Source: a virus (lineage: Duplodnaviria > Heunggongvirae > Uroviricota > Caudoviricetes). From it: a DNA stretch of 38,756 nt. The stretch is from IMG/VR virus record IMGVR_UViG_646311923_000010; one strand, 5' to 3'. A model generated the notes under the pieces. It ran no database searches and was not told where the DNA came from. It was given only the letters and a program-made list of their open reading frames with translations. A program made the translations under genes and the position numbers. Shown here piece after piece: positions 2,215 to 37,907 of this stretch. Position 1 is the first letter of the stretch. Each line of letters starts with the position of its first letter.

Positions 2215-3192
2215 TTACATTCCTCCCAAGGGATTAAACCTCACCGCATCCTGCAAGTAATCCGGCGCAAGATGGGCATAAATCATCGTTGTCTGAATCT
2301 TTGCGTGCCCCAGAATTTTCTGGAGCGTCAGAATATTGCCGCCGTTCATCATGAAATGACTGGCGAAGGTGTGGCGCAGCGCATGAACAGCCTGGCCGTC
2401 AGGAACATCAGGTGCGACCGTTTTGATGACATCGCGAACCAATGAATAATCCAGCGTCGGAAACACCAGTTTCCCGCCCCGTTTTTTGATCTTTTCAAAC
2501 AGGCTTTCAGTAATAGGAACGGTACGGTTTTTGCTGTTCTTCGTTTTTGAAAAAGTGATTCGACAATGAAGAACACGGCGCTGCTCCAGTGCCGCTACCT
2601 CGCCCCATCGCGCCCCGGTCGACAGAAGGATTTCGACAGCCAGTCGTTCATCGGGATTTTCAGCCAGTGCATCCAGCAACTGAACACATTCAGACTTACT
2701 CAGATATCCCATTTCGCGCTCGTTAACCTTCATTCCTTTAAGGCCTTGAACGGGGTTATCGTTAAGAAAATGGCCGGATGAGATGAGTGCGGTAAACATC
2801 GCGCTTAACGCCCCAATCTCTCGATTTATGGTGCTGGGCTGTATCCCCTGCTCTATCCTGGACACACGTAGCTCGGTGAGCATCGTTGTATTAAGTTTAT
2901 GCACGCACGGGTCATCCATTGCTTCACTCAAGCGCAGCAATTTAAGGCGCGTGTTATGCCCTGACTTCATTAGCTGGCCGTGGTATTTCCACCACAAGTC
3001 AATAAGCACTGACAGAGGACGGCGATCAATGGAGTTTCCTTTCCACTCATTGTTATGCTGTTGCGCCAGCACCCACCGCTCATATAAAACTGCATCCGAT
3101 TTCGTTTTAAATTTTTTGCGAATGCGTTTGCCTTTACGCCCCTCCGGGCGCATGTCAAGAAGATACCCTCCCGGAATTGATTTTATGCTCAT
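2215..3192 (-). CDS. int: Tyrosine integrase, P2 Int family
   Basis: ORF 2215..3342; start set at ATG 3192 (MSIKSIPGG...) by alignment with recalled P2 Int N-terminus; C-terminal HALRHTFASHF...LGH...TTMIYAH catalytic region. Confidence 0.9.
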   Translation of the reverse strand: MSIKSIPGGYLLDMRPEGRKGKRIRKKFKTKSDAVLYERWVLAQQHNNEWKGNSIDRRPLSVLIDLWWKYHGQLMKSGHNTRLKLLRLSEAMDDPCVHKLNTTMLTELRVSRIEQGIQPSTINREIGALSAMFTALISSGHFLNDNPVQGLKGMKVNEREMGYLSKSECVQLLDALAENPDERLAVEILLSTGARWGEVAALEQRRVLHCRITFSKTKNSKNRTVPITESLFEKIKKRGGKLVFPTLDYSLVRDVIKTVAPDVPDGQAVHALRHTFASHFMMNGGNILTLQKILGHAKIQTTMIYAHLAPDYLQDAVRFNPLGGM

Positions 3193-3241
3193 TCGTGAAA
3201 CCCCAGCGTTACAAGACCACCATGCCCCCAGCGCTCCATGA

Positions 3242-3553
3242 TTAGCCGGGCTGTGTGCCAGTCTTGCGGGGTTTTTGAGAAGGCGATGTGCTTTTTGGCC
3301 CATCAGGGGAGAGAGACGGACTGATCTGCCCAGCAGCCTCATTTGTTTTTCCCGTCATAAGCCATATAGTGTATTTTTCGAAATCCTTAGAATTAATTAC
3401 GCGATCAACAACGCTTAAACCAACCTCTCTTTTACCGCTCTCATAATTCTTTATAGTTCCGAGATTTATCCCAGTAACATCTGCAAACTCAGCTTGAGTT
3501 AACCCTTCACTTTTCCGTATCTCTTTCAGTTTTTTTTCGTACCCACTTGACAT
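3242..3553 (-). CDS. C: Immunity repressor, P2 C-like HTH protein
   Basis: 103-aa ORF directly upstream of int on the same strand; helix-turn-helix segment LTQAEFADVTGINLGTIKNYESG; GGAG 6 nt upstream of ATG. Confidence 0.8.
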   Translation of the reverse strand: MSSGYEKKLKEIRKSEGLTQAEFADVTGINLGTIKNYESGKREVGLSVVDRVINSKDFEKYTIWLMTGKTNEAAGQISPSLSPDGPKSTSPSQKPRKTGTQPG

Positions 3554-10425: not shown

Positions 10426-11385
10426 ATGAAAATTTGTATCGACGACGGCTCCACCAACATCAAGCTGGCATGGACTGAGAACGGCGAACGCCGCAACGCC
10501 ATCAGCCCGAACAGCTTCAAGTCGGAATGGTCTGCGCCGTTCGGTGGTACGCAGCCCGCGAACTACATGCTTGATGGCGTGCGCTATGGTTTTGATCCGG
10601 TCAGCGATCGCTTTGTCCAGACGACCGACACGCAATACCAGTACAGCGATGTGAATGTCATTGCCATTCATCACGCGCTGGTCAAATCAGGCATCACACC
10701 ACAGGAAGTGGATGTGGTTGTCACCCTGCCACTGAGCGAGTATTTCGATACAAACGCACAGCCGGACATGGCCAACATCAACCGCAAAAAAGCGAACGTC
10801 ATGCGCCCGGTGGAGTACCAGAACGGCGAAGCATTCACTATCCGTAACGTACGGGTTATGCCTGAATCCATTCCGGCAGGCTTTAAGGCACTGGCTGACA
10901 TGAGTCCGTTTGAATCCCTACTGATTGTGGATTTGGGCGGAACCACGCTGGATGTGGCAAAGGTTCAGGGGCAACTGGCAGGTATCAGCCAGGTGTTTTG
11001 CGATCCACACGTAGGCGTTTCTCTGATGGCCGATGCCGTACTGTCGGTGATGGCCACTAACGGTATGCGCACCAGTCACCACATCGCCAATACCATTATC
11101 GAACATCGCCATGATGAAGCCTGGCTGCGCCAGCACATCCACAATGACGCGCATTACGCCAGCCTGATGGCGGTTATTCGTGAAAAGGAAGAAACACTGA
11201 AACAACGCGTGATCCGCGCGCTGGCGGTTTTTTCGGGTTACGGGCGGGTGATGGTTGTCGGTGGCGGGGCGGAGATTGTGGCACCCGCTATCCGCGAAGC
11301 CTGCGGAGTTAATGCGACTTTCATCGCGGACGGGGTGCCACAGTTTGCTCTGGTTAATGGGCTGTACGCAATGGACAAGGAGTAA
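10426..11385 (+). CDS. parM: ParM/StbA-like actin-fold partition ATPase
   Basis: 319-aa ORF; N-terminus MKICIDDGSTNIKLAW and motifs YSDVNVIAIHHAL, VMPESIPAG, LIVDLGGTTLD, VMVVGGGAE align with recalled plasmid R1 ParM. Confidence 0.8.
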   Translation: MKICIDDGSTNIKLAWTENGERRNAISPNSFKSEWSAPFGGTQPANYMLDGVRYGFDPVSDRFVQTTDTQYQYSDVNVIAIHHALVKSGITPQEVDVVVTLPLSEYFDTNAQPDMANINRKKANVMRPVEYQNGEAFTIRNVRVMPESIPAGFKALADMSPFESLLIVDLGGTTLDVAKVQGQLAGISQVFCDPHVGVSLMADAVLSVMATNGMRTSHHIANTIIEHRHDEAWLRQHIHNDAHYASLMAVIREKEETLKQRVIRALAVFSGYGRVMVVGGGAEIVAPAIREACGVNATFIADGVPQFALVNGLYAMDKE

Positions 11386-23989: not shown

Positions 23990-26092
23990 ATGAGTACCAC
24001 AACACGAAAATTTAAAACCGTTATCACCGATACGGGTGCAAAAAAATTAGCTCAGGCAGCCGCGCCAGATGGTAAGCCTGTCCGCCTGACTCATATGGCC
24101 GTGGGCGACGGTGGCGGCACGTTGCCCACACCAGACAGTAAGCAGACCCGTCTGGTGCATGAGGTGTGGCGACACACTGTTAATCGCGTCATCCTGGACG
24201 CAACACATCAGAACCGCATTATTGCGGAGCTGGTTATTCCTCCTGAAGCGGGCGGATTCTGGATCCGGGAAATTGGTGTATTTGATGAGCACGGCGATTT
24301 AATCGCGGTGGGCAATACTGCCGAAAGTTACAAGCCAACCGTTGCCGAGGGGTCCGGACGTGCACAAACATTTCGCACCATTCTGACCGTATCCAGCACT
24401 GCCAGCGTGGCGCTTACCGTGGATAACACCATGGTGATGGCCACAGTGGATTACGTGGATGACAAACTGAAAGAGCATGAACAGTCACGACGTCACCCGG
24501 ATGCCTCGCTGACCGCAAAAGGCTTTGTTCAACTCAGTAGCGCCACTAACAGCGATTCTGAAACGCTGGCCGCAACGCCGAAAGCGGTTAAGGCCGCGTA
24601 TGACCTGGCTAACGGAAAATATACCGCTCAGGACGCCACGACGGCACGAAAAGGGATAGTCCAGCTCAGCAGTGCAACCAACAGCACGTCTGAAACGCTG
24701 GCAGCGACACCAAAAGCGGTTAAGGCGGTAATGGATGAAACGAACAAGAAAGCCCCATTAAACAGCCCGGCACTGACCGGAACGCCAACAACACCAACTG
24801 CACAACAGGGAACGAATAATACCCAAATCGCAAGCACGGCTTTCGTTATGGCCGCGATTGCCGCACTTGTAGACTCTTCACCTGACGCACTGAACACGCT
24901 GAACGAGCTGGCGGCGGCGCTGGGCAACGACCCGAATTTTGCGACCACCATGACTAACGCGCTTGCGGGTAAGCAACCGAAAGATGCCACCCTGACGGCG
25001 CTGGCCGGGCTTGCTACTGCGGCAGACAGGTTTCCGTATTTTACGGGGAATGATGTCGCCAGCCTGGCAACTCTGACAAAAGTAGGGCGGGATATTCTTG
25101 CGAAATCGACCGTTGCCGCCGTTATCGAATACCTCGGTTTACAGGAAACGGTAAATCAGGCTTCTGGCGCATTACAGAAAAACCAGAACGGCGCAGATAT
25201 TCCGGGGAAAGATACCTTCACCAAAAATATTGGTGCCTGCCGCGCATATAGCTCATGGCTGAATATTGGTGGCGATAGTCAGGTCTGGACAACCGCGCAA
25301 TTTATTTCGTGGCTGGAGAGTCAGGGAGCATTTAACCATCCTTACTGGATGTGCAAAGGCTCATGGGCTTATGCAAATAATAAGGTCATTACAGATACAG
25401 GTTGCGGAAATATTTGTCTTGCAGGTGCTGTGGTGGAAGTTATTGGCACTCGCGGCGCAATGACCATACGCGTTACCACGCCGAGCACGTCCAGCGGTGG
25501 CGGAATTACTAACGCTCAATTCACTTATATTAATCATGGTGATGCTTACGCTCCTGGCTGGCGACGAGACTACAACACGAAAAATCAACAACCTGCATTT
25601 GCTTTAGGGCAAACAGGAAGCACTGTCGGAAATGATAAAGCTGTTGGCTGGAACTGGAATAGCGGGGTCTATAACGCAAACATTGGTGGCGCATCGACAT
25701 TAATCCTCCACTTCAATATGAATACGGGGAGCTGCCCTGCTGTACAGTTCCGCGTGAATTACAGGAACGGCGGTATTTTTTATCGTTCAGCGCGTGATGG
25801 TTATGGATTTGAGGCTGACTGGTCAGAGTTTTACACCACGACCCGCAAACCCTCTGCGGGAGATGTTGGTGCATACACGCAGGCAGAATGTAACTCAAGG
25901 TTTATTACAGGTATTCGCCTTGGCGGTCTGTCATCTGTTCAGACATGGAATGGTCCCGGCTGGTCTGACAGGTCAGGTTATGTCGTTACGGGTTCAGTTA
26001 ACGGAAACCGTGATGAATTAATTGATACAACTCAGGCAAGGCCAATTCAGTATTGCATTAATGGGACGTGGTATAACGCGGGGAGTATTTAA
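23990..26092 (+). CDS. H: Tail fibre protein gpH (constant N-terminal part plus currently expressed variable C-terminal part)
   Basis: 700-aa ORF; duplicated LSSATNS(D/T)SETLAATPKAVKA motif typical of P2-type fibres; crossover site lies inside the ORF at 25122-25147. Confidence 0.85.
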   Translation: MSTTTRKFKTVITDTGAKKLAQAAAPDGKPVRLTHMAVGDGGGTLPTPDSKQTRLVHEVWRHTVNRVILDATHQNRIIAELVIPPEAGGFWIREIGVFDEHGDLIAVGNTAESYKPTVAEGSGRAQTFRTILTVSSTASVALTVDNTMVMATVDYVDDKLKEHEQSRRHPDASLTAKGFVQLSSATNSDSETLAATPKAVKAAYDLANGKYTAQDATTARKGIVQLSSATNSTSETLAATPKAVKAVMDETNKKAPLNSPALTGTPTTPTAQQGTNNTQIASTAFVMAAIAALVDSSPDALNTLNELAAALGNDPNFATTMTNALAGKQPKDATLTALAGLATAADRFPYFTGNDVASLATLTKVGRDILAKSTVAAVIEYLGLQETVNQASGALQKNQNGADIPGKDTFTKNIGACRAYSSWLNIGGDSQVWTTAQFISWLESQGAFNHPYWMCKGSWAYANNKVITDTGCGNICLAGAVVEVIGTRGAMTIRVTTPSTSSGGGITNAQFTYINHGDAYAPGWRRDYNTKNQQPAFALGQTGSTVGNDKAVGWNWNSGVYNANIGGASTLILHFNMNTGSCPAVQFRVNYRNGGIFYRSARDGYGFEADWSEFYTTTRKPSAGDVGAYTQAECNSRFITGIRLGGLSSVQTWNGPGWSDRSGYVVTGSVNGNRDELIDTTQARPIQYCINGTWYNAGSI
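25122..25147. other. DNA invertase crossover site (gix/cix-like), left
   Basis: TTATCGAATACCTCGGTTTACAGGAA matches the recalled gix consensus; inverted homology with 28369-28450 extends about 80 bp. Confidence 0.8.
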
Positions 26093-26094
26093 CG

Positions 26095-26628
26095 ATGATG
26101 CACTTAAAAAACATTACTGCTGGCAACCCTAAAACAAAAGAGCAATACCAGCTAACGAAACAATTTAACATCAAATGGCTTTATTCAGAGGATGGAAAAA
26201 ACTGGTATGAGGAACAAAAGAATTTCCAGCCAGACACTTTGAAAATGGTCTATGACCATAACGGCGTTATTATTTGTATTGAAAAGGATGTTTCAGCAAT
26301 TAATCCGGAAGGCGCAAGCGTCGTTGAATTACCTGATATTACAGCAAATCGCCGTGCTGACATTTCGGGTAAATGGATGTTCAAAGATGGCGTAGTGGTA
26401 AAGCGAACTTATACCGAGGAAGAGCAGAGGCAGCAGGCGGAAAATGAAAAGCAAAGCCTGCTACAGCTCGTCAGGGATAAAACCCAGCTATGGGACTCAC
26501 AGCTACGGCTGGGCATCATTTCCGACGAGAATAAACAAAAATTAACAGAGTGGATGCTCTTTGCGCAGAAAGTCGAATCTACAGACACTTCCAGCCTGCC
26601 AGTAACGTTTCCCGAACAACCAGAATGA
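26095..26628 (+). CDS. Tail fibre assembly chaperone (gpG/Tfa)
   Basis: 177-aa ORF immediately after H; N-terminus MMHLKNITAGNPKT and DITANRRAD motif shared with the minus-strand paralogue. Confidence 0.8.
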   Translation: MMHLKNITAGNPKTKEQYQLTKQFNIKWLYSEDGKNWYEEQKNFQPDTLKMVYDHNGVIICIEKDVSAINPEGASVVELPDITANRRADISGKWMFKDGVVVKRTYTEEEQRQQAENEKQSLLQLVRDKTQLWDSQLRLGIISDENKQKLTEWMLFAQKVESTDTSSLPVTFPEQPE

Positions 26629-26631
26629 GAG

Positions 26632-26651
26632 AAGGCCCGATATCGGGCCTT
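26632..26651. terminator. Bidirectional hairpin between convergent tail-fibre assembly genes
   Basis: Perfect 20-bp palindrome AAGGCCCGATATCGGGCCTT flanked by A/T runs. Confidence 0.6.
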
Positions 26652-26656
26652 AATTT

Positions 26657-27184
26657 TTACTCAGGCTTTTGTGGCCATTCGGGCTTTGCCGTATCCACAC
26701 GGCTGACCATAACACTGTAGCGTTCCCATGCTTCCAGTCGGCTACGCTCCTCATCCGTCGCCATATTCAGCCTGACAGCGCGCTCCAGTGGCTGAATAAC
26801 GCTTTCCGCTTCGGAAAGTAACGCGGCCTTTTGTGATTCGGCCTGTTGTTGCTGCTCGTCTGCCGTATAAATCCGTTTAACTACAGCTCCGTCCTTAAAC
26901 ATCCACTTACCGGAATCATCGGCCCGACGATTGGCTGTTATATCGGGGACCTCAACGACGTTAAAACCTTCAGGGTTAAGCGTGGAGGCATCTTTAGTTA
27001 TGGCAACAATAATATTATGTTCATCGTAAACAATCTTTATTGTGTCTTCCTGAAAATTCTTTACCTCTTCATACCAGTTTTTTCCGTCTTCGGACCACAA
27101 CCAGATAACGTCAAAATTCTTTGTTAATTCGTACTGTTTCAGTGTTTTAGCGTTACCCGCTTTAATGTTCTTTAAGTGCATCAT
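26657..27184 (-). CDS. Alternative tail fibre assembly chaperone (Tfa')
   Basis: 175-aa ORF on minus strand, paralogous to 26095..26628. Confidence 0.8.
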
Positions 27185-27185
27185 A

Positions 27186-28424
27186 TTAAACGCTCGCTAC
27201 ATTATACCAGGTGCCATTTATATACTTTTGAACTGGTCTGTAATAAACGCCAGCTATATTATCGGCAGAATTTGACCCTGTATCCTGAACATTTATACCA
27301 GACAATACATGACCTGAAGGGCACTGGAAGCTCCATGTTTGCCAGTTGTTCACACCATAATATTGCTGTGAACCAAGCCGAACATCTTTCACATATCGGG
27401 CATCAATGTTACCCCAGTTGCTTGGTTGTATCTGACCGTTTACAGCAAATGTCACCGAGTTATCTGTATTTCGCTGACTATAGAAATGCCAGCCTGAATC
27501 ATCACCAAGCTCTGCAACAGTTGGTCTTGACGAATTTCCCCACAAGTTAAATGATGCATTACGGGCAGCGGTATTTGCACTTGAAAGTGTGAATAACTTA
27601 CTTTCCCCAGCCTGAATACCCTTTAATGATATTGCTGAACCATTTCTAAAGCGGAATACATGCACACCATTAGCATAAGCATCCAGCACCCCATCACCAT
27701 TTTGTTTAAACCCGGTATCGTTATCTCCTAAAACTATTGAATTGCTACCCAGGGCATTAGCCGTTCCAATCCCCAGATTTCCGCTAAAAATGGCATTAAT
27801 ACCGAATATTGAGTGAGAACAATAAAACCCTCGCCCATTGTTAAAATCAAGAATAGCTTGTGCGTTCGTGCTTTCTGTCGCGGGATTAGTTGCTCCCCAC
27901 TTATATGTTGTTTGACCGACGGTATAATCCTGAGTTGGAACAATAACCGTTAGCCCTTCTTCAGCAGAAACCCGCACAGGAAAAGCCCTGCCTTCAACGT
28001 AAAAAACGCTGCATACATCATCTTCTTTAAGGCTTGTTACAATGGAATGGATTGCGCGCTCATTAGTCTGATACGTCGAAAAATAACCTGCCGCATATGA
28101 ACCACGATCAGTCCAGCCACCAGGCATTACCATTCCATTGAATTCGCAGTTATTCATTTCGTAATTACCACCGGCAGATGTGGTCGTTATAATCACTCTG
28201 GAAGCCAGCTCGCCAGTGCTGCCTGTGGAACGCCGGAAAATAACTGGATACCACTTTCCACCAACTGCATTAGACGGCGCATTAAATGCGTACTGCTGCA
28301 TTCCTTTTTTCTTATCCACCTCGCCTTTGCTGTAAACATTAATGTTACTCAGGAAGCGATCCTTATCAGGAATATCTGCGCCGTTCTGGTTTTTCTGTAA
28401 TGCGCCAGAAGCCTGATTTACCGT
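27186..28424 (-). CDS. Alternative tail-fibre variable C-terminal segment (Hv'), promoterless and startless in this orientation
   Basis: Open frame continues upstream of the track ORF (27186..28319) to the crossover site; first ~25 codons after the site are identical to those in H ([24 protein letters not shown]). Confidence 0.7.
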
Positions 28425-28450
28425 TTCCTGTAAACCGAGGTTTTAGATAA
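28425..28450. other. DNA invertase crossover site (gix/cix-like), right
   Basis: TTCCTGTAAACCGAGGTTTTAGATAA, reverse complement of the left site with 3 mismatches. Confidence 0.8.
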
Positions 28451-28504
28451 TGGCCGTTTCCGGCCTGCATGGCATGATTTGCGCTTTTGGACGGGAGATT
28501 CAGT

Positions 28505-29104
28505 GTGCTGATTGGTTATGTAAGGGTATCAACAAATGACCAGAATACAGACCTGCAACGAAACGCTCTTGTTTGTGCAGGATGTGAACAAATATTTGAA
28601 GATAAATTAAGCGGGACAAAGACAGACCGACCGGGATTAAAACGCGCTTTAAAGCGGCTTCAAAAAGGTGACACGCTGGTTGTCTGGAAACTGGATCGCC
28701 TCGGGCGAAGCATGAAACATCTGATTTCTCTCGTCGGGGAACTACGGGAGCGAGGGATTAATTTTCGCAGTCTGACCGACAGCATAGATACATCTTCTCC
28801 AATGGGGCGTTTTTTCTTCCACGTTATGGGTGCCCTGGCTGAAATGGAACGTGAATTAATTGTTGAACGTACACTGGCCGGACTGGCGGCAGCGCGCGCA
28901 CGGGGGCGCACAGGCGGACGTCGCCCGAAGCTGACAAAAGAACAGCATGAGCAAATAGCTAGGCTGATCAAAAACGGTCATGACAGGAAACAACTGGCGA
29001 TCATTTACGACATCGGCATATCGACAATTTATCGTTATCACCCTGTGGGCGATATACAGGCTGAAGAAACAACCAGGCAGACTCAGGAAAATGAAAACCG
29101 CTAA
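28505..29104 (+). CDS. Serine recombinase DNA invertase (Gin/Pin/Cin/Hin family)
   Basis: ORF 28487..29104; GTG at 28505 gives MLIGYVRVSTNDQNTDLQRNAL, the classic invertase N-terminus with catalytic Ser; C-terminal HTH. Confidence 0.9.
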   Translation: MLIGYVRVSTNDQNTDLQRNALVCAGCEQIFEDKLSGTKTDRPGLKRALKRLQKGDTLVVWKLDRLGRSMKHLISLVGELRERGINFRSLTDSIDTSSPMGRFFFHVMGALAEMERELIVERTLAGLAAARARGRTGGRRPKLTKEQHEQIARLIKNGHDRKQLAIIYDIGISTIYRYHPVGDIQAEETTRQTQENENR

Positions 29105-29123
29105 TCTGACCATTAGCGGTTTT
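29094..29123. terminator. Bidirectional terminator hairpin between convergent invertase and U genes
   Basis: AAAACCGCTAAT-ctgacc-ATTAGCGGTTTT perfect 12-bp inverted repeat. Confidence 0.6.
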
Positions 29124-29130
29124 GCGTTAA

Positions 29131-29625
29131 TCAAAACAGCCCTTTAACGGAGCTGGCCGCGCTGTTAAGGGATGATGTGACCTTATCTTTGAAGCCGGAC
29201 AGCATATCACTGAACGATGAGGATTGCAGGCGCTCCCGCAAATCCTCATCACAGCGTTCAAGGGTCAGTGAAAATTCTATCTTTTTCGCCTTACCGTAGC
29301 GATCAAACTCGGAACGGGTCGTATTCGTTCCGGTCAGGACATACATGCCGTAAATCTGCCCGACGCCATCAATCAAAGGCCAGGGTCGTCCTGTATACGC
29401 CTGCGTGGTCAGCAGCGACAGCGACACTTCGCCACCTGTAATTTCAGGATAAAGCACACCAGAAAGAACGATGCGATCATCACCTGCACCGATATACTGC
29501 CAGCTTGCTGAACGGTTAACGCGTTCATTTTTCACATGCCGCCAGCTTTTGTTTTGCTGTAACTGCTGATGCGGCAGCGTGCGCAGCTCAAAAACAAACA
29601 TGCCGTAGATCATCATCATGGCCAT
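29131..29625 (-). CDS. U: Tail protein, P2 gpU family
   Basis: 164-aa ORF; FVFELRT...SGVLYPEITGG...KIEFSLTL aligns with recalled gpU; alternative start 29619. Confidence 0.85.
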   Translation of the reverse strand: MAMMMIYGMFVFELRTLPHQQLQQNKSWRHVKNERVNRSASWQYIGAGDDRIVLSGVLYPEITGGEVSLSLLTTQAYTGRPWPLIDGVGQIYGMYVLTGTNTTRSEFDRYGKAKKIEFSLTLERCDEDLRERLQSSSFSDMLSGFKDKVTSSLNSAASSVKGLF

Positions 29626-29631
29626 GACTCC

Positions 29632-32475
29632 TCAATCTTTATCGTAAAAACTGCCACGCCCAGCACGGGCGCGCCGTTCCATTTCTGCCCTGACCATTTC
29701 ACCGACCAGTTTCGCCAGTTCGCGGGGATTCTGCGTAACAACGTTATGCAGATGAACATGAATTTCACCGCCAAATCCTGAGGCAACAGGTTCCCGGTTA
29801 CGCGAAGGTGTTGGGGCTGATGCCACTGGCGATCGTATGGCCTCCGCCACCGGGCGGGAGCTGGCCGCAACAACAGGGACCAGCGCCGGAGGCAGCGGGG
29901 CCGGAACCACAGGCGTGATATTAATTGCGGGGGCAGGCTTACTGACCTGCGCAATCTTCCGCTCCTGCCACTCCCCACGAACGGCAAGTGCGCGGGGCAG
30001 GTTCTTAAAGACAATATCGCCGGGGCCAATGCGTTTTTTCGTCTCATCAACCAGCTTACCTGTGTTATCAGCAATCTTGCTGAGTCTGCGTAGCGTACCG
30101 GTATTGCTGTCTGTGAGCGGTTTGTTGTCTTTGGGTTTATCACCTCCGGTGCCATTGCCATTTTCCACAGGCTTCGGCGGATTGATTTTCGCCAGGTCAC
30201 CCTGAAGCAAGGCAACCTTGTCCTGAAGAATGGCCGCACGCTGTGCGTCTTCGATTTTCTTTCTCGCCCTTTCCGCTTCATCCGGAAGCACACCGAGTTT
30301 TTCAAGTATCCACGCCAGCGTATCCAGCAACATTTTTGCTGGCGTCAGAACAAGCTGTAACGCGCCACCAAGAACGTTGCCGAATACCTCGCCAGCACTG
30401 GTGCATTTATCCAGCGTTTCCTTGCTGGACTCCATCGGTGACAACAGCGATTTAAACCAGTTAAACACCTGGCTGATCCCGCTTCCGATTGCGTCAAAAA
30501 CAGGACCAAACCGTTCAAAGGTTTCGCGCAACGGGGTCAGCCTTTCCATAATTCCGCTGAACACCCCGGCAAAAAATGCCCTGATGGGATCCCAGTATTT
30601 CCAGATAAGAATGGCAGCTCCGGCAAGCGCAGCCACGATAAGACCAACCGGACTGAACAGCGCCCCGATAGCACCTCCCAGCAAAGAAACGGAACCCGTC
30701 ACCATTCCCCATAGTGCTGGCAGGAGCCTGACAGCATTCATTGATCCGGTCAGGAGGGAAAAACCAAGACGCAGTTTTGCCAGCGGACCAGCAAGCACAC
30801 CAAGAGCAAGCGACAACGAGCCTACGGTTGCAGTCACTGCCAGCAGCGCACCGCCTGCAATCAGTAGCTGGCGCGTCAGTACAGGATGGGCCTGCGCCAG
30901 TACCGTCACCTTTGAGACCACCCGTGTTAGCCACTGCGTGACAGAACGCAGCGGACCGTCAACCAGATCACTGATGCGAATACGAAGACCTTCCCATGCG
31001 CTGTCGAGATTTTTCAGGTCGCCATCAAGGTTGTCGGCCATAACCTTTGCCGTGCGTTCAGCCTCACCGCGTGCGCCCTCAAGTTCTTTTCTCAGTTTGG
31101 GTAAGGAACCGTCACCCGCCGCATCAACGAGTGCCATAAACGATGTGAAAGCCTCTTCCCCGGCGATGTCCTTAAAGAAGGATACCCGGTCAACTTCCCC
31201 GTATTTGCGGGTGGCTTTATAAAGGTCAGCCAGCAGATCTTCCATCGGGCGCATTTTGCCCCCGGCATCCGAAACGGACACGCCCAGCTCTTTCAGAGCT
31301 TCTGCCGCCGCCTTTGGCGGTGATGCCAGACGAGCCAGGCTGGCACGCATTGCCGTCCCGGCATCACTCCCTCTGATGCCCATATTCGCCAGCACGCCCG
31401 CCATCGCTGCGGCCTGCTCCAGCGATATTCCCAGCTTACCCGCCACCGGACCTGCATATTTCATGGTTTCGCCCAGTGCGCGAAGGTCAGTGTTGGTACG
31501 GGTAAACGCTGCGGTGAGTGTGTCACCGACCCGGTCCATCTGGTCAGCAGAAAGGCCGAACTGCGTCAGGATATTTGAGCCAATATCTGCCGTCTCGCCG
31601 AGATCCATACCGCCAGCCGTTGCCATGCTCAGCACGCCGGGAAGCGCAGCCTGAATGGCCTGCGGAGTGAAGCCAGCCATTGCAAGAAATGCCTGTCCAC
31701 TGGCGGCATCGCCTGCGGTGAACTGCGTTTCAGAGCCAAGTTTTAACGCCTGCTCACGCAGCGCCTTAAACTGCGGGCTGTTCTGGTCGATTCGCGTCAG
31801 TGCCTGAACGCGGGACATCTCTTTGCCGAACCCGATCGCAGGCTGCAAAAAACGCCCGGCAGCATAGCCGCCCGCCGCTGCCGCACCAATTGCCAGTGCA
31901 CCACCTGTTTTCAGTTTTCCCGCTGTTTCCTGCGCGCGCGAATACCGCTCACGCGCCCGCGTTACACGCGCAAGCGCCTGCCGTTCGCGTTCAAGCTGGT
32001 TGTTGTACTGTTCGGTGCGTCTGATGGCCTGCTGGATGGTGTTATCGCTGCCTGTCAGGGAAATGCCGTGGCGTTTCAGCTCTCCGCCAAGCTCCCGCAT
32101 TTTCTGAATTTCCCGCGTGCGCGATTCATTCAGGCGTTCAAGCCGGGTGCTTAACTGCTGCATCAGCTTTTGTTGTTTTTCGCTGAGCACTGTACCCGTG
32201 CGTTGTAACTGATTAAGGGCGTTAAGCTGGCGTCGTGCTTTCACGATACCCGCATCCGCTTTACTGACAGCGTCGCGGGCGCGCTCAAATGAACGCGCCT
32301 GACGCTCGAGATTTTTGATCGCCCCCTGCGTTCGCTGGATGGAGTCACCAAACTGCCCCATCAGGCGGCGGGCGTTTTCGGCAGGCCGGGTCAGCCTGTC
32401 AACGGCGCTGAAAGCGACCCGGATATCAAGAGTCTTCATTGTCTGCATTCCCGCTGCGAAGTGCCGCCCGCTCAC
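29632..32475 (-). CDS. T: Tail tape measure protein, P2 gpT family
   Basis: 947-aa ORF; long coiled-coil N-terminal half, Gly/Ala-rich hydrophobic middle; track start is GTG at 32475, alternative ATGs at 32448 and 32439. Confidence 0.85.
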   Translation of the reverse strand: MSGRHFAAGMQTMKTLDIRVAFSAVDRLTRPAENARRLMGQFGDSIQRTQGAIKNLERQARSFERARDAVSKADAGIVKARRQLNALNQLQRTGTVLSEKQQKLMQQLSTRLERLNESRTREIQKMRELGGELKRHGISLTGSDNTIQQAIRRTEQYNNQLERERQALARVTRARERYSRAQETAGKLKTGGALAIGAAAAGGYAAGRFLQPAIGFGKEMSRVQALTRIDQNSPQFKALREQALKLGSETQFTAGDAASGQAFLAMAGFTPQAIQAALPGVLSMATAGGMDLGETADIGSNILTQFGLSADQMDRVGDTLTAAFTRTNTDLRALGETMKYAGPVAGKLGISLEQAAAMAGVLANMGIRGSDAGTAMRASLARLASPPKAAAEALKELGVSVSDAGGKMRPMEDLLADLYKATRKYGEVDRVSFFKDIAGEEAFTSFMALVDAAGDGSLPKLRKELEGARGEAERTAKVMADNLDGDLKNLDSAWEGLRIRISDLVDGPLRSVTQWLTRVVSKVTVLAQAHPVLTRQLLIAGGALLAVTATVGSLSLALGVLAGPLAKLRLGFSLLTGSMNAVRLLPALWGMVTGSVSLLGGAIGALFSPVGLIVAALAGAAILIWKYWDPIRAFFAGVFSGIMERLTPLRETFERFGPVFDAIGSGISQVFNWFKSLLSPMESSKETLDKCTSAGEVFGNVLGGALQLVLTPAKMLLDTLAWILEKLGVLPDEAERARKKIEDAQRAAILQDKVALLQGDLAKINPPKPVENGNGTGGDKPKDNKPLTDSNTGTLRRLSKIADNTGKLVDETKKRIGPGDIVFKNLPRALAVRGEWQERKIAQVSKPAPAINITPVVPAPLPPALVPVVAASSRPVAEAIRSPVASAPTPSRNREPVASGFGGEIHVHLHNVVTQNPRELAKLVGEMVRAEMERRARAGRGSFYDKD

Positions 32476-32589
32476 GCCAGCTAACCACTTCGCCGGGCGT
32501 CATCATGAAGATTTCGGCGGGCGACCAGTTAAAAATAACGGCAATATCTGCCACAAAGTCTTCTATGTGCTCAAAGCACACAACCGTGA

Positions 32590-32955
32590 TCAGGCTTCCG
32601 TCGCCTGTTCGTTCTTCCCGCCAGAGTCCGCACCGCTCAAAAAATTTACGGCAACCACACATAACTGAATAAAGTCACGGGATGCCATTTTTTTGATCGT
32701 CACTTCATCCAGTCGCGGTGATGTCACGCGTGACAGCAGCGTAAACATGGATTCCGCTTTCAGATTCAGCACATCAGACAGCGACAAATCTCGCAGAGAT
32801 CCAGCCTGCTCAATAGCCCCGGTGATCTCCACATACGTGATTTTTTCGCCGCCTCGCTCAATTGGTTGGGTAAGTTTTACGCCACGCTCACTGGTTTCTT
32901 TCACAGTGTCAGCAACTACCGTGTTTTCGGTATCGATGTTTTTCGTCTCTTTCAT
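32590..32955 (-). CDS. E: Tail assembly chaperone gpE, with programmed -1 frameshift product E+E' extending to 32426
   Basis: 121-aa ORF; slippery TTTTTTG (plus-strand A-run 32639-32644) near its 3' end; overlapping -1 frame stays open to 32426 and overlaps T start. Confidence 0.7.
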   Translation of the reverse strand: MKETKNIDTENTVVADTVKETSERGVKLTQPIERGGEKITYVEITGAIEQAGSLRDLSLSDVLNLKAESMFTLLSRVTSPRLDEVTIKKMASRDFIQLCVVAVNFLSGADSGGKNEQATEA

Positions 32956-33009
32956 CAGGAAACTCCTTTCAGTCAGAGGCGACGCACTGCGCCGCCTGCA
33001 TATTACTTA

Positions 33010-33522
33010 TCAGCCAAGCCCAAGCGCGGAACGGATGCGATCGGGCACAATGTCCTTGCCGTCCTTCCGGTAAATGAAGTTCAGCAGGTCAATCTCCCAC
33101 AACGGACGATCGTTAACACTCAGCTTGTAGTAGGTGTTTTTAATGGCGTAAGTGTGTGATGTGGCTTCGCCCTGTTTGGCTTCCCCCATATCAATTTCCG
33201 TCACGCGTCCGCGCATTTCGACTTCATACAGGTCGCTTTCTGCATCGGTGTAGTATTCACCCGCAAAACGCAGTAGCGTGCCGTCAATCGTGCCGCCATA
33301 CTTAAGGAACAGCTCACGAACTGCGCCCCCCATGACAAAGCTCGCATCAAGCGCGGAGTCGTCCAGACCGAGATCAATACTTACCGCACCCATCATGCCG
33401 CCCCCCCGGTAGCTGTCGGTTTTGCGCGTCAGCTTAGGCAGAGTGACGGACGTCACCTTACCCACTTCGTTTTCACCATCCACAAACAGCGTAAAAAAGC
33501 GAAGATGTTTTGGCACAGCCAT
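33010..33522 (-). CDS. FII: Tail tube protein, P2 gpFII family
   Basis: 170-aa ORF directly downstream of FI on the same strand; size matches gpFII. Confidence 0.88.
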   Translation of the reverse strand: MAVPKHLRFFTLFVDGENEVGKVTSVTLPKLTRKTDSYRGGGMMGAVSIDLGLDDSALDASFVMGGAVRELFLKYGGTIDGTLLRFAGEYYTDAESDLYEVEMRGRVTEIDMGEAKQGEATSHTYAIKNTYYKLSVNDRPLWEIDLLNFIYRKDGKDIVPDRIRSALGLG

Positions 33523-34706
33523 CAGGCACCTCCCAAAACCGCAAATGCGGGTTCAAAGTATTCATCAGTAAACGTCTGGTAAAGCTCCATGTCTTCCAGT
33601 GGCGGAACGGGCGTATATTTGTAGCGAATACGCACACGCCCCTGACGTAAATCCGTGGTGCTGTTATCCACCACGTCATACCAGCACTCCGCGCCAATCA
33701 GTTTCCCGGCAGTAACCAGTGAATCCAGTTTTGCCCTGATGGCACTGATAACATCCTTCACGTTCGCAGGCGTCAGTGGACTGTCGATGGTTTCAAACTG
33801 CGCATCCGCAATTGAATCAGCCAGCACCTGTGCGGTTCGGGTATACACCTCAAAGATGTAGGCGTTCGTTTCCGGTGTGCGGTTGCCCCAGAAGCGGAAC
33901 CCGTTGCGACGAATAATGGTCGTGATTTCTTTGTTGTTGAGGCTGTTGGCATCACTGTCTTCGGCCTGCAACGACCAGAACACATGCCTGGACATCCCCA
34001 GCACATTTTTAACCGGAACGTTGGACAGCGATTTGTGCCAGCCCTGCTCATGGTCAATGTACGCACGAAGGCCGCACGCATAGGCAGGCGCGGGGAACGT
34101 TTCGTTTTTGCCACTTTTCGGGTTGTAGGCGATGAAGTCCGGCCATAAGAGCATCACCTCACGTTCGTTGAATTTCTGGCGGTAGGTAATCGCCTCAGCC
34201 ATCGTGTTACAGCCGTGACATGAGGCATACACAAACGCGCGCAGTTTACCCGCAATCACGCACAGGGATTTTGTTACCGCCTCCGTGTCCAGCTCCGGCG
34301 CGGCCAGAATACGCGGACGGTATCCGATGGTTTCATCCTGCTCTGCAACAAGCAGCGCATACATCCCCGTATAGCTGCCGTCAGATTCAGAACCACCGAT
34401 AACCAGTTGATCCTGCGTTTTTCCGTCTTCTTCTTTGTGTTCAGCCACGCGAACGACGATCACCTTTGTGCTCACCTGGTCTGCGATAGCCTTAAGCGCA
34501 CGATAAAGCGTCCCCGTTGTTCCGCATTTTCCCAGCACGTCATTGACGCGGGTCAGCAGTGTGGGCTTGTTCAGCGGGAACAGCTCCGCATCCGCATCAT
34601 CCGCCGTTGCCACGATACCGATAACACTGGAATCAACATCATTAATCGCTGTTACCAGGTCGGTACTTTCCGTAACACGGGCACCATGAAAACGAGTTTC
34701 ACTCAT
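33522..34706 (-). CDS. FI: Contractile tail sheath protein, P2 gpFI family
   Basis: 394-aa ORF; size and downstream gene order match gpFI. Confidence 0.9.
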   Translation of the reverse strand: MSETRFHGARVTESTDLVTAINDVDSSVIGIVATADDADAELFPLNKPTLLTRVNDVLGKCGTTGTLYRALKAIADQVSTKVIVVRVAEHKEEDGKTQDQLVIGGSESDGSYTGMYALLVAEQDETIGYRPRILAAPELDTEAVTKSLCVIAGKLRAFVYASCHGCNTMAEAITYRQKFNEREVMLLWPDFIAYNPKSGKNETFPAPAYACGLRAYIDHEQGWHKSLSNVPVKNVLGMSRHVFWSLQAEDSDANSLNNKEITTIIRRNGFRFWGNRTPETNAYIFEVYTRTAQVLADSIADAQFETIDSPLTPANVKDVISAIRAKLDSLVTAGKLIGAECWYDVVDNSTTDLRQGRVRIRYKYTPVPPLEDMELYQTFTDEYFEPAFAVLGGA

Positions 34707-34862
34707 AGCTTCAGCCCCTTGTATCCGTTAAATGATTCGGCAACAATCATCACCCACCACGCGCGTAATCTCACCCCTGCGCCGTTCTCCCGCCACGGCG
34801 ACAACAAAAAGCAGTAACCCCCTCCGCACGCACATGCGACCATGCCACACAGGGAGGGAAAG
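34707..34862. promoter_or_regulatory. Intergenic region between divergent FI and D; presumed late promoter(s) and one inversion junction
   Basis: 156 bp between divergently oriented FI and D starts; in canonical P2 D follows U on the same strand. Confidence 0.35.
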
Positions 34863-35972
34863 ATGATCGACACCACCATGCAATTGCTCAGTCAGAGCAC
34901 AGACCCCGTGAAAATGCCGGATTTTGATATTCTCGCGGAGGGGGAAACGCTGTCCGGCGTGGCAGAGCGCCTGATGAGTCTGTCACTGACCGACAACCGG
35001 GGATTTGAAGCGGACCAGCTCACCATCACGCTGGATGATGCGGATGGTCAGTTGCAGCTACCGCCACGGGGCGCGCGCCTGACGGTTCTCATTGGCTGGA
35101 AAGGAGAACCGCTGACAGAAAAAGGCACTTACATTGTTGATGAAATCGCTCACGAAGGACCGCCGGACAGGCTGACTGTTTCAGCCAGAAGCGCAGATTT
35201 TCGGGATGAATTTAACGTTAAACGTGAGGTGTCCTGGCATGATGTGACCGTTGAACGTGTGGTATCCGCCATCGCTCATCGGTATGGTCTGAAACCGCAA
35301 ATCAGCGAAATGCTGATGGATATCGAAATCGACCACGCCGACCAGACCGAAGAAAGCGACATGTCCTTCCTTACGCGCATGGCGGAAATGCTGGGCGCAA
35401 TCACCACGGTAAAAAGCGGCAATCTGTTATTCATCATGCCAGGCGGTGGCGTGAACGCACAGGGCCAGCCGTTGCCCTCGTTCGCCATTACACGCAGCAG
35501 CGGCGATCGCCATCAGTTCCGCATTGCTGACCGCGAGGCGTATACGGGGGTACGCGCCTACTGGCTTGATCTTAATTACGGGAAAAAGAAAAAAGTCAGC
35601 GTGAAACGCCGTAAACCGCCAAAACCCAAAAAGGAGAAAAGCAGCAGCCGTGAAGGTGATTATATGGAAGGCGCGGAAGGCAATGTGTTTGTGTTACGCA
35701 AGACTTATCAGAACGAGCAGGCAGCAAGACGCGCAGCGGCGGCAAAGTGGCAGCAGCTACAACGCGGAGCCGCATCATTCTCCATCACGCTGGCACGTGG
35801 TCGTGCAGAACTCTACCCCGAAATGCATGGCACGGTAACAGGATTCAAAAGCGACATTGATAAACAGAACTGGATTATAGCCAAGGCGGAACACACCATC
35901 GATGGAAGCGCGTTTACCTCGCAGCTTGAGCTTGAAGCAAAAATCCCGGAATGGATAGCAGAAACAGAGTGA
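34863..35972 (+). CDS. D: Tail protein, P2 gpD family
   Basis: ORF 34842..35972; ATG at 34863 preceded by AGGGAGGG; size and position before ogr match gpD. Confidence 0.85.
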   Translation: MIDTTMQLLSQSTDPVKMPDFDILAEGETLSGVAERLMSLSLTDNRGFEADQLTITLDDADGQLQLPPRGARLTVLIGWKGEPLTEKGTYIVDEIAHEGPPDRLTVSARSADFRDEFNVKREVSWHDVTVERVVSAIAHRYGLKPQISEMLMDIEIDHADQTEESDMSFLTRMAEMLGAITTVKSGNLLFIMPGGGVNAQGQPLPSFAITRSSGDRHQFRIADREAYTGVRAYWLDLNYGKKKKVSVKRRKPPKPKKEKSSSREGDYMEGAEGNVFVLRKTYQNEQAARRAAAAKWQQLQRGAASFSITLARGRAELYPEMHGTVTGFKSDIDKQNWIIAKAEHTIDGSAFTSQLELEAKIPEWIAETE

Positions 35973-36323: not shown

Positions 36324-37907
36324 ATGGCAAGTAAAGCTAACCTTGTTAATTTGGATGCGATGATTTCAAGAGAGGATTTCTCTGCTCAATCCGATAATGA
36401 TTTATCTTTCGAATCTATACAAAATATAGCTATGAGAGATATCGAAATGTTGTCTGGCCTACTCAGAAAACCAGATTTTCAGAGAGAAACAAATCACTGG
36501 ACTCCAGAGCAAGTAGTTTCATTACTAAAGAGTTTTGTCACAGGTGATTTAATACCATCCGTGATTTTATGGAAGAGTTCTTTTCTGTTTGTTATAGACG
36601 GTGGTCATAGACTTAGTGTTTTAAGAGCATGGAAAGAAAATGACTATGGTGATGGCACTATATCGCAAAAATTCTTTGGAAATAGTATTTCCGGAGAGCA
36701 AAGAAAGATCGCACAAAAAACAAGAGAATTGGTTGACTCCACAGTTGGTAAATGGTCTGAGATAGAAAGAAAAATGCAGGATTCTAATAATGACCATGAT
36801 GAGAGTAGAAGGCTTACAAATATTTACGTAAGGGCTTTGCAAGTCCAGTGGGTTAAAGGTGATTCCGATAAGGCAGAAACGTCTTTTTTCAATATAAATA
36901 AAAAAGGTACTCCTTTAGATGAGGTTGAGGAAACTTTACTTAGGCATAGGAAGAAACCTATATCTATCGCTGCGAGAGCAATAATACGTGCAGGAAAAGG
37001 ACATAGATACTGGTCCTCTTTCCCTGAGGATAAGACTAAAAAGATAGAAGAGCTTTCCTCAAATATAAACTCCTCTCTTTTCGATCCAGACGTTAAATCT
37101 CAAATTAAAACACTTGATCTACCTCTGGGTGGCTCACGCGGTGTGAGGTTAGCTCTTGATATCTTAATAGATCTTATGTCTATTTCCGTGTCCCAAAACG
37201 AAAATTATCAAAAAGAATTGCTTAATCAAATCGAAGATTCAGATGGAAGCGAAACTGTTGTTGTTCTGGAAAAAACCGCAAAATTACTAAATTGGATTAC
37301 TGGAAATGACAAGGGCAGCTTAGGATTACATCCGGCCGTGTATTTTTATAGTGCATCAGGCAGACATGTGAATCCTATGTTTTTAGGGACGACTCTGTTT
37401 ATAGCGAAAAAATTAAAATTTAATGATAAGAACTTCTTCAAAAAATTCACAAGTATTAGGTTTAATTTAGAGAAAACTCTAATAAACAATAAGTCTATGC
37501 TAGCATCGTTAGTGAACAGAGCAGGACATAAGAAAAGAACTGAGTATTACTCTAATTTATTTGAGTCAATGATTGATTTCCTTCTTGAGGTAAAAAAGAA
37601 AGACAAAAGCATGAGTGATTTCAGCCTTACAGAAAGTGAAATACTCCAGCTTGCTCACTTTGAAGGTAATATCCTATCTGGGACAAGTATCAGCAATGCA
37701 ACTAAAATTAGTGAGGAAGCGAAGAATGCTGTATTCATTGATACTGCATTAGCTTCAGCAATTACATGTCCTATCTGCCAGGGATATTTAGATCCTTCAA
37801 AATCTGTCTCATATGATCACATCAAAAGAGTTGCAGATGGTGGTAAAGGTTTGGCAAAAAATACTCAGTTAACTCACCCGTATTGCAATATGTCTGTCAA
37901 AAATTAG
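36324..37907 (+). CDS. DUF262 (ParB-like, DGxHR motif) + C-terminal HNH nuclease protein; GmrSD/BrxU-like candidate defence nuclease
   Basis: 527-aa AT-rich ORF; N-terminal PDFQRETNHWTPEQV...FVIDGGHRLSVL matches the DUF262 signature; C-terminal CPICQGY...YDHIKRVADGGKG...NTQLTHPYCN is HNH/His-Me-finger-like; flanked by AT-rich non-coding DNA. Confidence 0.7.
   Translation: MASKANLVNLDAMISREDFSAQSDNDLSFESIQNIAMRDIEMLSGLLRKPDFQRETNHWTPEQVVSLLKSFVTGDLIPSVILWKSSFLFVIDGGHRLSVLRAWKENDYGDGTISQKFFGNSISGEQRKIAQKTRELVDSTVGKWSEIERKMQDSNNDHDESRRLTNIYVRALQVQWVKGDSDKAETSFFNINKKGTPLDEVEETLLRHRKKPISIAARAIIRAGKGHRYWSSFPEDKTKKIEELSSNINSSLFDPDVKSQIKTLDLPLGGSRGVRLALDILIDLMSISVSQNENYQKELLNQIEDSDGSETVVVLEKTAKLLNWITGNDKGSLGLHPAVYFYSASGRHVNPMFLGTTLFIAKKLKFNDKNFFKKFTSIRFNLEKTLINNKSMLASLVNRAGHKKRTEYYSNLFESMIDFLLEVKKKDKSMSDFSLTESEILQLAHFEGNILSGTSISNATKISEEAKNAVFIDTALASAITCPICQGYLDPSKSVSYDHIKRVADGGKGLAKNTQLTHPYCNMSVKN

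Follow-up and report, generated by a model that had tools for sequence, protein, structure and literature searches.

Evidence for a two-state tail-fibre switch of the Mu G-segment type in a P88-like prophage of Escherichia coli O145

Why would the tail-fibre gene of a P2-type prophage carry the recombination site of a DNA invertase in the middle of its reading frame? The question is raised by gene H in a stretch of viral DNA of 38,756 nucleotides (nt) from IMG/VR (record IMGVR_UViG_646311923_000010), the whole of which we refer to as the window. Gene H occupies positions 23990-26092 of the + strand and encodes, as sequenced, a protein of 700 amino acids (aa), but its last 319 codons lie inside a segment of about 3.3 kb that is bounded by two inverted sites and followed by an invertase gene. 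We hold it to be very probable that this region is a two-state host-range switch of the type of the Mu G segment, carried by a P88-like prophage of E. coli O145. Its principal parts are the following.

25122-25147, + strand: left crossover site (gixL-like), inside H; TTATCGAATACCTCGGTTTACAGGAA; central TC at 25134-25135; 2 differences from Mu gix; identical to the left site of P88
28425-28450, - strand: right crossover site (gixR-like), 54 nt upstream of the invertase start; TTATCTAAAACCTCGGTTTACAGGAA; 1 difference from Mu gix; identical to the right site of P88
23990-25134, + strand: Hc, the constant part of tail-fibre gene H, codons 1-381; PF12571 tail-collar N-terminal domain and two PF03406 fibre repeats
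25135-26092, + strand: Hv, the currently expressed tip, of the Mu Sv' (G(-)) type; the last 319 codons of H span 25133-26092; matches PHROG tail-fibre families
26095-26628, + strand: tfa, the chaperone for Hv, of the Mu U' type; PF02413 Caudo_TAP, E=2.7e-36; 97% identical to Mu U'; separated from the H stop by 2 nt
26657-27184, - strand: tfa', the silent chaperone, of the Mu U type; PF02413, E=1.2e-36; 91% identical to Mu U
27186-28437, - strand: Hv', the alternative tip, silent at present; its frame of 417 codons (27186-28439) is open from the site to the stop; matches PHROG tail-fibre families
28505-29104, + strand: serine DNA invertase, 199 aa, GTG start; PF00239, E=1.3e-50, and PF02796 (HTH_7), E=8.8e-13; phrog_125 'DNA invertase', E=5.9e-97

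The initial annotation had proposed two 26-bp gix-like sites in inverted orientation at 25122-25147 and 28425-28450. These coordinates proved exact, and the two sites are only 1-2 bases away from the Mu gix reference sequence, TTATCCAAAACCTCGGTTTACAGGAA. On the + strand the central dinucleotide reads TC in the left site and GA in the right one, that is, the same asymmetric core, inverted. When the whole window was searched at up to three mismatches, both with a full-site pattern and with a pattern made of the core plus the inner arm, these two sites were the only gix-like matches, and not one of 100 dinucleotide-preserving shuffles of the window contained any site match. A third crossover site, as would be expected of a shufflon-like system, was rejected on the same searches, which gave no extra site. 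The four coding elements that had been claimed between the sites were found in the order proposed, Hv and tfa on the + strand followed by tfa' and Hv' on the - strand.

Does the segment invert? The inversion test consisted of searching complete E. coli genomes for the predicted flipped junction, in which Hc is joined to Hv'. This junction was found with 100% identity over 1200 nt in the O145 strains RM9872, RM9873-C1 and RM12367-C1, in the O111:H8 strain 8B and in 95NR1. The two arrangements are about equally frequent, the flipped junction being present in 7 records (at least 99.5% identity, full length) and the junction of the window in 5 (at least 99%). In the orientation sequenced here, the 5.7-kb region is 100% identical in a nucleotide search to the prophage of E. 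coli O145 RM9467-C1 and RM10425-C1. RM9872, which belongs to the same cattle O145 lineage as RM9467-C1, shows 1 mismatch in 13,200 nt when compared with the window flipped in silico; set against the window as sequenced, it differs only within 25204-28368. In the case of 95JB1 and 95NR1, two Adelaide faecal isolates of serogroup O111 from the same outbreak, 95NR1 and flipped 95JB1 match without any mismatch over 13,200 nt. Since these two pairs of near-clonal genomes differ only by the inversion, both orientations exist in nature, in otherwise identical prophages. Thus, neither of the findings that would speak against a working switch, a single orientation or a truncated invertase, was encountered: the two orientations are seen among near-clonal genomes, and the invertase has its full length.

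What is exchanged when the segment turns? Hc stays fixed and gives its start codon to either tip and, by inference, it is through Hc that late-operon transcription of the joined tip is supplied. It is 79-87% identical to the N-terminal part of P88 H and unrelated to Mu S except for short fibre repeats. We also noted in Hc a 96-nt direct repeat (24499-24594 and 24631-24726, 75% identity, 132-nt spacing), which corresponds to the two Phage_fiber_2 repeats. The tip that is joined to Hc at present is close to one of those of Mu: H residues 376-700 share 97.5% identity with the Mu Sv' open reading frame (ORF), and the silent tip of P88 matches them completely (100%).

The other tip lies on the - strand, where translation through the right site is open from the crossover inward, so that the frame of Hv' is continuous with the site, as had been claimed. 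The sole stop of this frame is a TAA at 28443-28445, in the outer half of the right site and beyond the crossover point. Hv' had also been described as promoterless, a view that our analysis bears out: read in the frame of the site, it is a startless cassette with neither a start codon nor a promoter to itself. Inverting 25135-28437 in silico produces an uninterrupted H' of 798 aa. Hv and Hv' are unrelated over most of their length. The C-terminal half of Hv' resembles gpH of P2 and Wphi (about 62% identity); over the full length of Hv', the best phage matches reach only 56% (9W and P22H4; tblastn). We considered Mu Sv as an identity for Hv' and rejected it, as only the last 92 aa are related, with 46% identity. 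Pfam gave no match for Hv', whose placement came from PHROGs and tblastn, and NCBIfam offered no specific model for the fibre or chaperone proteins. RefSeq treats the silent tip (27186-28301, - strand) as a separate gene with an arbitrary internal start, under a name that depends on the orientation: either 'hypothetical protein' or, as a product of 220 aa, 'tail fiber protein'.

A likely terminator marks the middle of the segment, where the two chaperone genes converge.

26632-26651, + strand: GC-rich hairpin, AAGGCCCGATATCGGGCCTT, with a T-run after it, in the interval separating the convergent chaperone genes; consensus match only

The crossover sites themselves form the outer ends of a longer inverted repeat of 102 nt.

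25118-25219, unstranded: left arm of the 102-nt inverted repeat; 91% complementary to the right arm
28353-28454, unstranded: right arm of the 102-nt inverted repeat

The two arms are identical over 73 nt (25131-25203 and 28369-28441), and because of this identity both tips open with the same 24 residues of Sv' type. The initial annotation had put the shared stretch at about 25 codons, and 24 identical residues after the crossover are in good agreement with it. In Mu and P88 the arms have only the 26-bp site plus 8 nt (34 nt) in common, whereas in the window the 73 identical nucleotides extend inward from the core. This extended identity suggests that, in the past, a gene conversion or the replacement of a cassette took place just inward of the site.

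The gene that adjoins the right site encodes an intact enzyme of the Gin/Pin type, as had been proposed, with Resolvase and HTH_7 domains and 82% identity to Mu Gin. The start assigned to it had to be changed, however, from TTG 28487, which would give a 205-aa ORF, to GTG 28505, located after GGGAGA. This start (MLIGYVRVST...) agrees with that of Mu gin and with the one given by RefSeq. The resemblance to Gin is concentrated in the first part of the protein, where 118 of 120 residues are identical before the two sequences diverge from about codon 120. The N-terminus, MLIGYVRVSTNDQ, equals Gin residues 1-13 and places Ser9 within YVRVST; in Gin, a phosphoserine has been described at position 9 (PMC3575834). 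The best solved-structure matches are likewise Gin (4m6f and 3uj3, E ~1e-101), and the P88 invertase is 97% identical to that of the window. In the case of the DNA-binding domain, the alignment is marginally better to Hin (1hcr) than to Gin. In that alignment (EQIARL vs EQISRL) the residues Q, R and L are kept at Hin positions 151, 154 and 155, and Q151, R154 and L155 of Hin are invertase-specific residues that contact Fis (PMC3798978). NCBIfam has no specific model for the invertase, all matches being far below cut-off. The gene thus has the look of a mosaic at the nucleotide level: identity to Mu gin is about 96% up to approximately codon 120 and is followed by an abrupt divergence, with a Hin-like C-terminal domain although the sites are gix-type.

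Together, gixR, the leader and the first ~370 nt of the invertase gene are about 96% identical to Mu. Within this part of the gene we infer a recombinational enhancer, and a palindrome between the gene and gpU is likely to be a bidirectional terminator.

28598-28658, unstranded: putative recombinational enhancer, made up of three Fis-like 15-mers of the form G-N13-C, AT-rich in the middle, located at +93, +128 and +139 within the invertase gene
29094-29123, unstranded: palindrome with a 12-bp stem, between the convergent invertase and gpU genes; consensus match only

All three Fis-like 15-mers are present in Mu gin, two of them identical and the third with one base different. Their placement agrees with a report that gin itself contains three Fis sites, some 550 bp ahead of the start of mom (PMC3378877). 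By eye, a GATAAT can be made out at 28446-28451, within the outer arm of gixR; it is not claimed as a promoter.

How would such a locus operate? Our description of the switch starts from what was established here, namely the layout of the locus, its reading frames and homologies and the existence of both orientations, and extends to the chemistry, the Fis dependence and the effect on host range by way of the Gin and Hin literature. By analogy with those systems, dimers of the invertase would bind both inverted gix sites, and the host protein Fis would bind the enhancer presumed to lie in the 5' region of the invertase gene. Ser9 would then serve to cut both sites at the central TC/GA; a rotation of one subunit pair by 180 degrees and religation of the DNA would leave 25135-28437 inverted. 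With the left site falling within the coding sequence of H, the N-terminal part of 381 codons is fused in frame to either tip. In the present state, the equivalent of Mu G(-), Hc and the tip of Mu Sv' type, followed by the chaperone of U' type, would give the 700-aa H. In the flipped state, Hc would be joined to the P2-gpH-like tip, followed by the chaperone of U type, to give the 798-aa H'. Late transcription entering by way of V-W-J-I-Hc would express only the cassette that faces the late promoter, and, whichever way the segment lies, the transcript would terminate at the central hairpin. As only one cassette would be expressed at a time, a lysogen population would be expected to release particles with two receptor specificities. 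The two orientations may thereby confer different host ranges, as judged from Mu and P1.

Some observations weigh against this reading. A scan of the interval between gixR and the invertase start (28451-28504) found no sigma-70 consensus promoter. The natural crossover can be placed only between site position 10 and position 82, an interval that includes the core without proving it. Because the arms are identical over 25131-25203, the comparison of genomes does not map the exchange any finer, nor does it by itself separate site-specific from homologous exchange. Finally, related loci are present in the same host genomes, the 5.7-kb query finding 5 matching places in RM9467-C1 (median 2 and up to 13 per genome), and therefore another invertase of the Din family could act in trans.

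Could such an enzyme, encoded by other prophages of the host, be the one that mainly flips the segment, the local gene being dispensable or inactive? Besides the number of related places per genome, this explanation can draw on the fact that Din invertases cross-complement, as illustrated by PinQ of the Qin prophage, which inverts the P segment of e14 (PMC12529663). Nevertheless, the local invertase is full length, retains all the catalytic and Fis-contact residues tested and is nearly the same protein as that of P88, an inducible phage. Moreover, enhancers act in cis, and the presumed one is inside the local gene next to gixR. We consider a leading role for a foreign invertase very unlikely.

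A shade less likely still is that the inversions between genomes arose by RecA-dependent homologous recombination across the long inverted repeat, with no part played by the invertase. The stretch of perfect identity in which the crossover must lie is what this explanation would need, as is a repeat longer than the 34 nt common to the Mu and P88 arms. However, 73 bp are a poor substrate for RecA, and it is established that the homologous Mu segments invert with repeats of only 34 bp. An intact, near-Gin invertase and canonical sites adjoin the segment, and the roughly equal frequency of flipped and unflipped forms among near-clonal isolates fits a fast programmed switch. That the module is instead a frozen relic, with rare and ancient changes of orientation and a silent cassette in decay, may be dismissed as hardly credible: it could appeal to the bare RefSeq name of the silent tip, 'hypothetical protein', but the silent frame of 417 codons and its chaperone are uninterrupted, and two independent genome pairs differ only by the flip, with 0-1 single-nucleotide polymorphisms in 13.2 kb, so that the inversion events must be very recent.

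Where does the switch come from? The Mu G segment has the same plan as the window, with a constant fibre part outside, Sv-U and U'-Sv' inside and the invertase gene outside. Nucleotide identity to Mu is about 93% from gixL through Sv', U' and U, and the identity resumes from gixR to around codon 120 of the invertase gene. The differences concern the constant part, which is a P2/P88-type H in the window and Sc in Mu; the tip paired with the U-type chaperone, which is P2-gpH-like in the window and Sv in Mu; and the DNA-binding domain of the invertase, diverged and Hin-like in the window compared with that of Mu Gin. The match to Mu, D108, SfMu and P1/P7 begins at window base 25122 (query base 1133), the first base of the left site, and H upstream of this point is of P88/P2 type. 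Canonical P2 was said to lack the module and indeed it does, its genes running H, G, terminator, fun(Z) and FI with no invertase. Taken together, these boundaries and the lack of an invertase in P2 make the initial annotation's picture of a Mu/P1-style switch grafted onto a P2 tail accurate as evolutionary history. The phage that carries the switch belongs to the P88-like genus Xuanwuvirus and is distinct from P2 proper.

The closest phages, P88, P884B11, phiSM, 520873 and 503458 (Peduoviridae, Xuanwuvirus), carry the module at the same place, in the order H, segment, invertase, and gpU/T on the opposite strand, and all matched Xuanwuvirus records annotate a 'DNA invertase', two fibre genes and two assembly genes. 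P88 thus has this switch too: its crossover sites do not differ from those of the window, and its silent tip is of Sv' type. The second tip is where the two differ: the one expressed by P88 is Mu-Sv-like, whereas the silent one of the window is P2-gpH-like, with no more than 56% full-length identity to any phage record. A paper on the tail fibre and host range of P88 does not mention the inversion, the invertase or the second tip (PMC5285337).

Other members of the Din family, namely Cin with the P1 C segment, Pin with the e14 P segment, and Hin, are also Fis-dependent serine invertases that act on 26-bp sites. The C segment of P1/P7 is 88-93% identical in nucleotides to the Sv'-U'-U part of the window; in P1 the invertase gene is located on the other side. 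Hin controls a promoter and not a fibre, and the e14 P segment lies within a defective lambdoid element. More similar in outcome are the prophages of enteropathogenic E. coli (EPEC) E2348/69 and Fels-2 (Fin) of Salmonella, where, like in the window, an invertase and inverted repeats exchange the C-terminus of a P2-type fibre. In EPEC, coexisting orientations of the fibre segments of P2-like prophages were detected in clonal cultures by sequencing and by the polymerase chain reaction (PMC4272514), and a fibre flip in Fels-2 between LT2 and LT7 was ascribed to a pin homologue (PMC7953296). One EPEC locus is shufflon-like, with three repeats and four variants, in contrast to the two sites and two states of the window. 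Multi-site systems, such as Min of p15B or the EPEC 'shufflon' type, are characterised by more than two sites, a number that the window does not reach.

Is any of this new? The module is a textbook Gin/G-segment switch, already known and annotated in the genus, and its novelty was overrated by the initial annotation, given that invertible fibres in P2-like prophages have already been published (PMC4272514, PMC7953296). The features specific to this locus are minor ones: a silent tip allele with at most 56% identity in phage records, a perfect repeat longer than that of Mu and P88, and an invertase that is a Gin/Hin-like mosaic.

What kind of phage carries the switch? Judged by its sequence, the window is a P88-like prophage (genus Xuanwuvirus, Peduoviridae) of E. 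coli O145. P88 and the window share 95% nucleotide identity over their common parts and the same gene order, and the Pfam matches in the window (GPA, portal, terminase, sheath, tube, GpU and GPD) make up a P2-type gene set. From left to right, the window opens with a host FecCD permease gene, an integrase, a P2 gpA-type replication gene and a ParM-like gene. There follow in the middle the portal, terminase and capsid genes, the lysis genes, V-W-J-I-H, the invertible segment and the invertase, and on the right U-T-E-FII-FI on the opposite strand, then gpD and a GmrSD-like gene. The FecCD-family permease gene of the host (1-981, - strand) adjoins the prophage, the integrase is at 2215-3342 (- strand), and two small ORFs with no assigned function lie between them (1174-2212). 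No tRNA or att-like direct repeats marking prophage ends were found within the window and, for this reason, the right end of the prophage is probably beyond it.

Several neighbouring genes deserve a comment. Directly after the gpA replication gene there is an actin-like partition gene of the ParM/StbA type (10426-11385, + strand; PF06406 and PF21523; phrog_691 'partition protein'), an unusual feature in an integrating phage of P2 type and a hint that maintenance or segregation may proceed in a plasmid-like manner. The 527-aa ORF that follows gpD at the right end of the prophage (36324-37907, + strand) has a GmrSD_N (DUF262) domain, a weak HNH-like C-terminus and a match to phrog_29172 (unknown function); it is probably an anti-phage cargo gene, resembling type IV restriction. 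The sheath-tube-E-tape measure-U block (29131-34706) is encoded on the strand opposite to that of H and has no gix-like site at its flanks; gpD (34842-35972) is again on the + strand. In P2, the genes from FI to D form one operon on the same strand as H. The arrangement of the window, with the sheath-to-U block on the other strand, recurs in P88 and is hence a trait of the genus.

What does the switch mean for these phages and their hosts? The Hv' tip, with no full-length match above 56% in phage records, could recognise a receptor that is uncharacterised. In the e14 P segment, inversion by PinQ creates StfE2 and blocks the adsorption of T2 (PMC12529663). By analogy, one orientation of the switch might also be of benefit to the lysogen, through expression of a fibre-derived protein by which a surface receptor is masked. 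We regard this idea as quite improbable; if true, the switch would double as a host-defence device and would not serve solely the host range of the virion. With regard to genome comparison, the switch accounts for the 3.3-kb inversion between near-clonal assemblies of Shiga toxin-producing E. coli (the O145 RM strains and O111 95JB1/95NR1), and it exposes the naming by RefSeq of the silent tip as a stand-alone 'hypothetical protein'. Studies on the host range of P88-like phages should reckon with a second, hidden tip.

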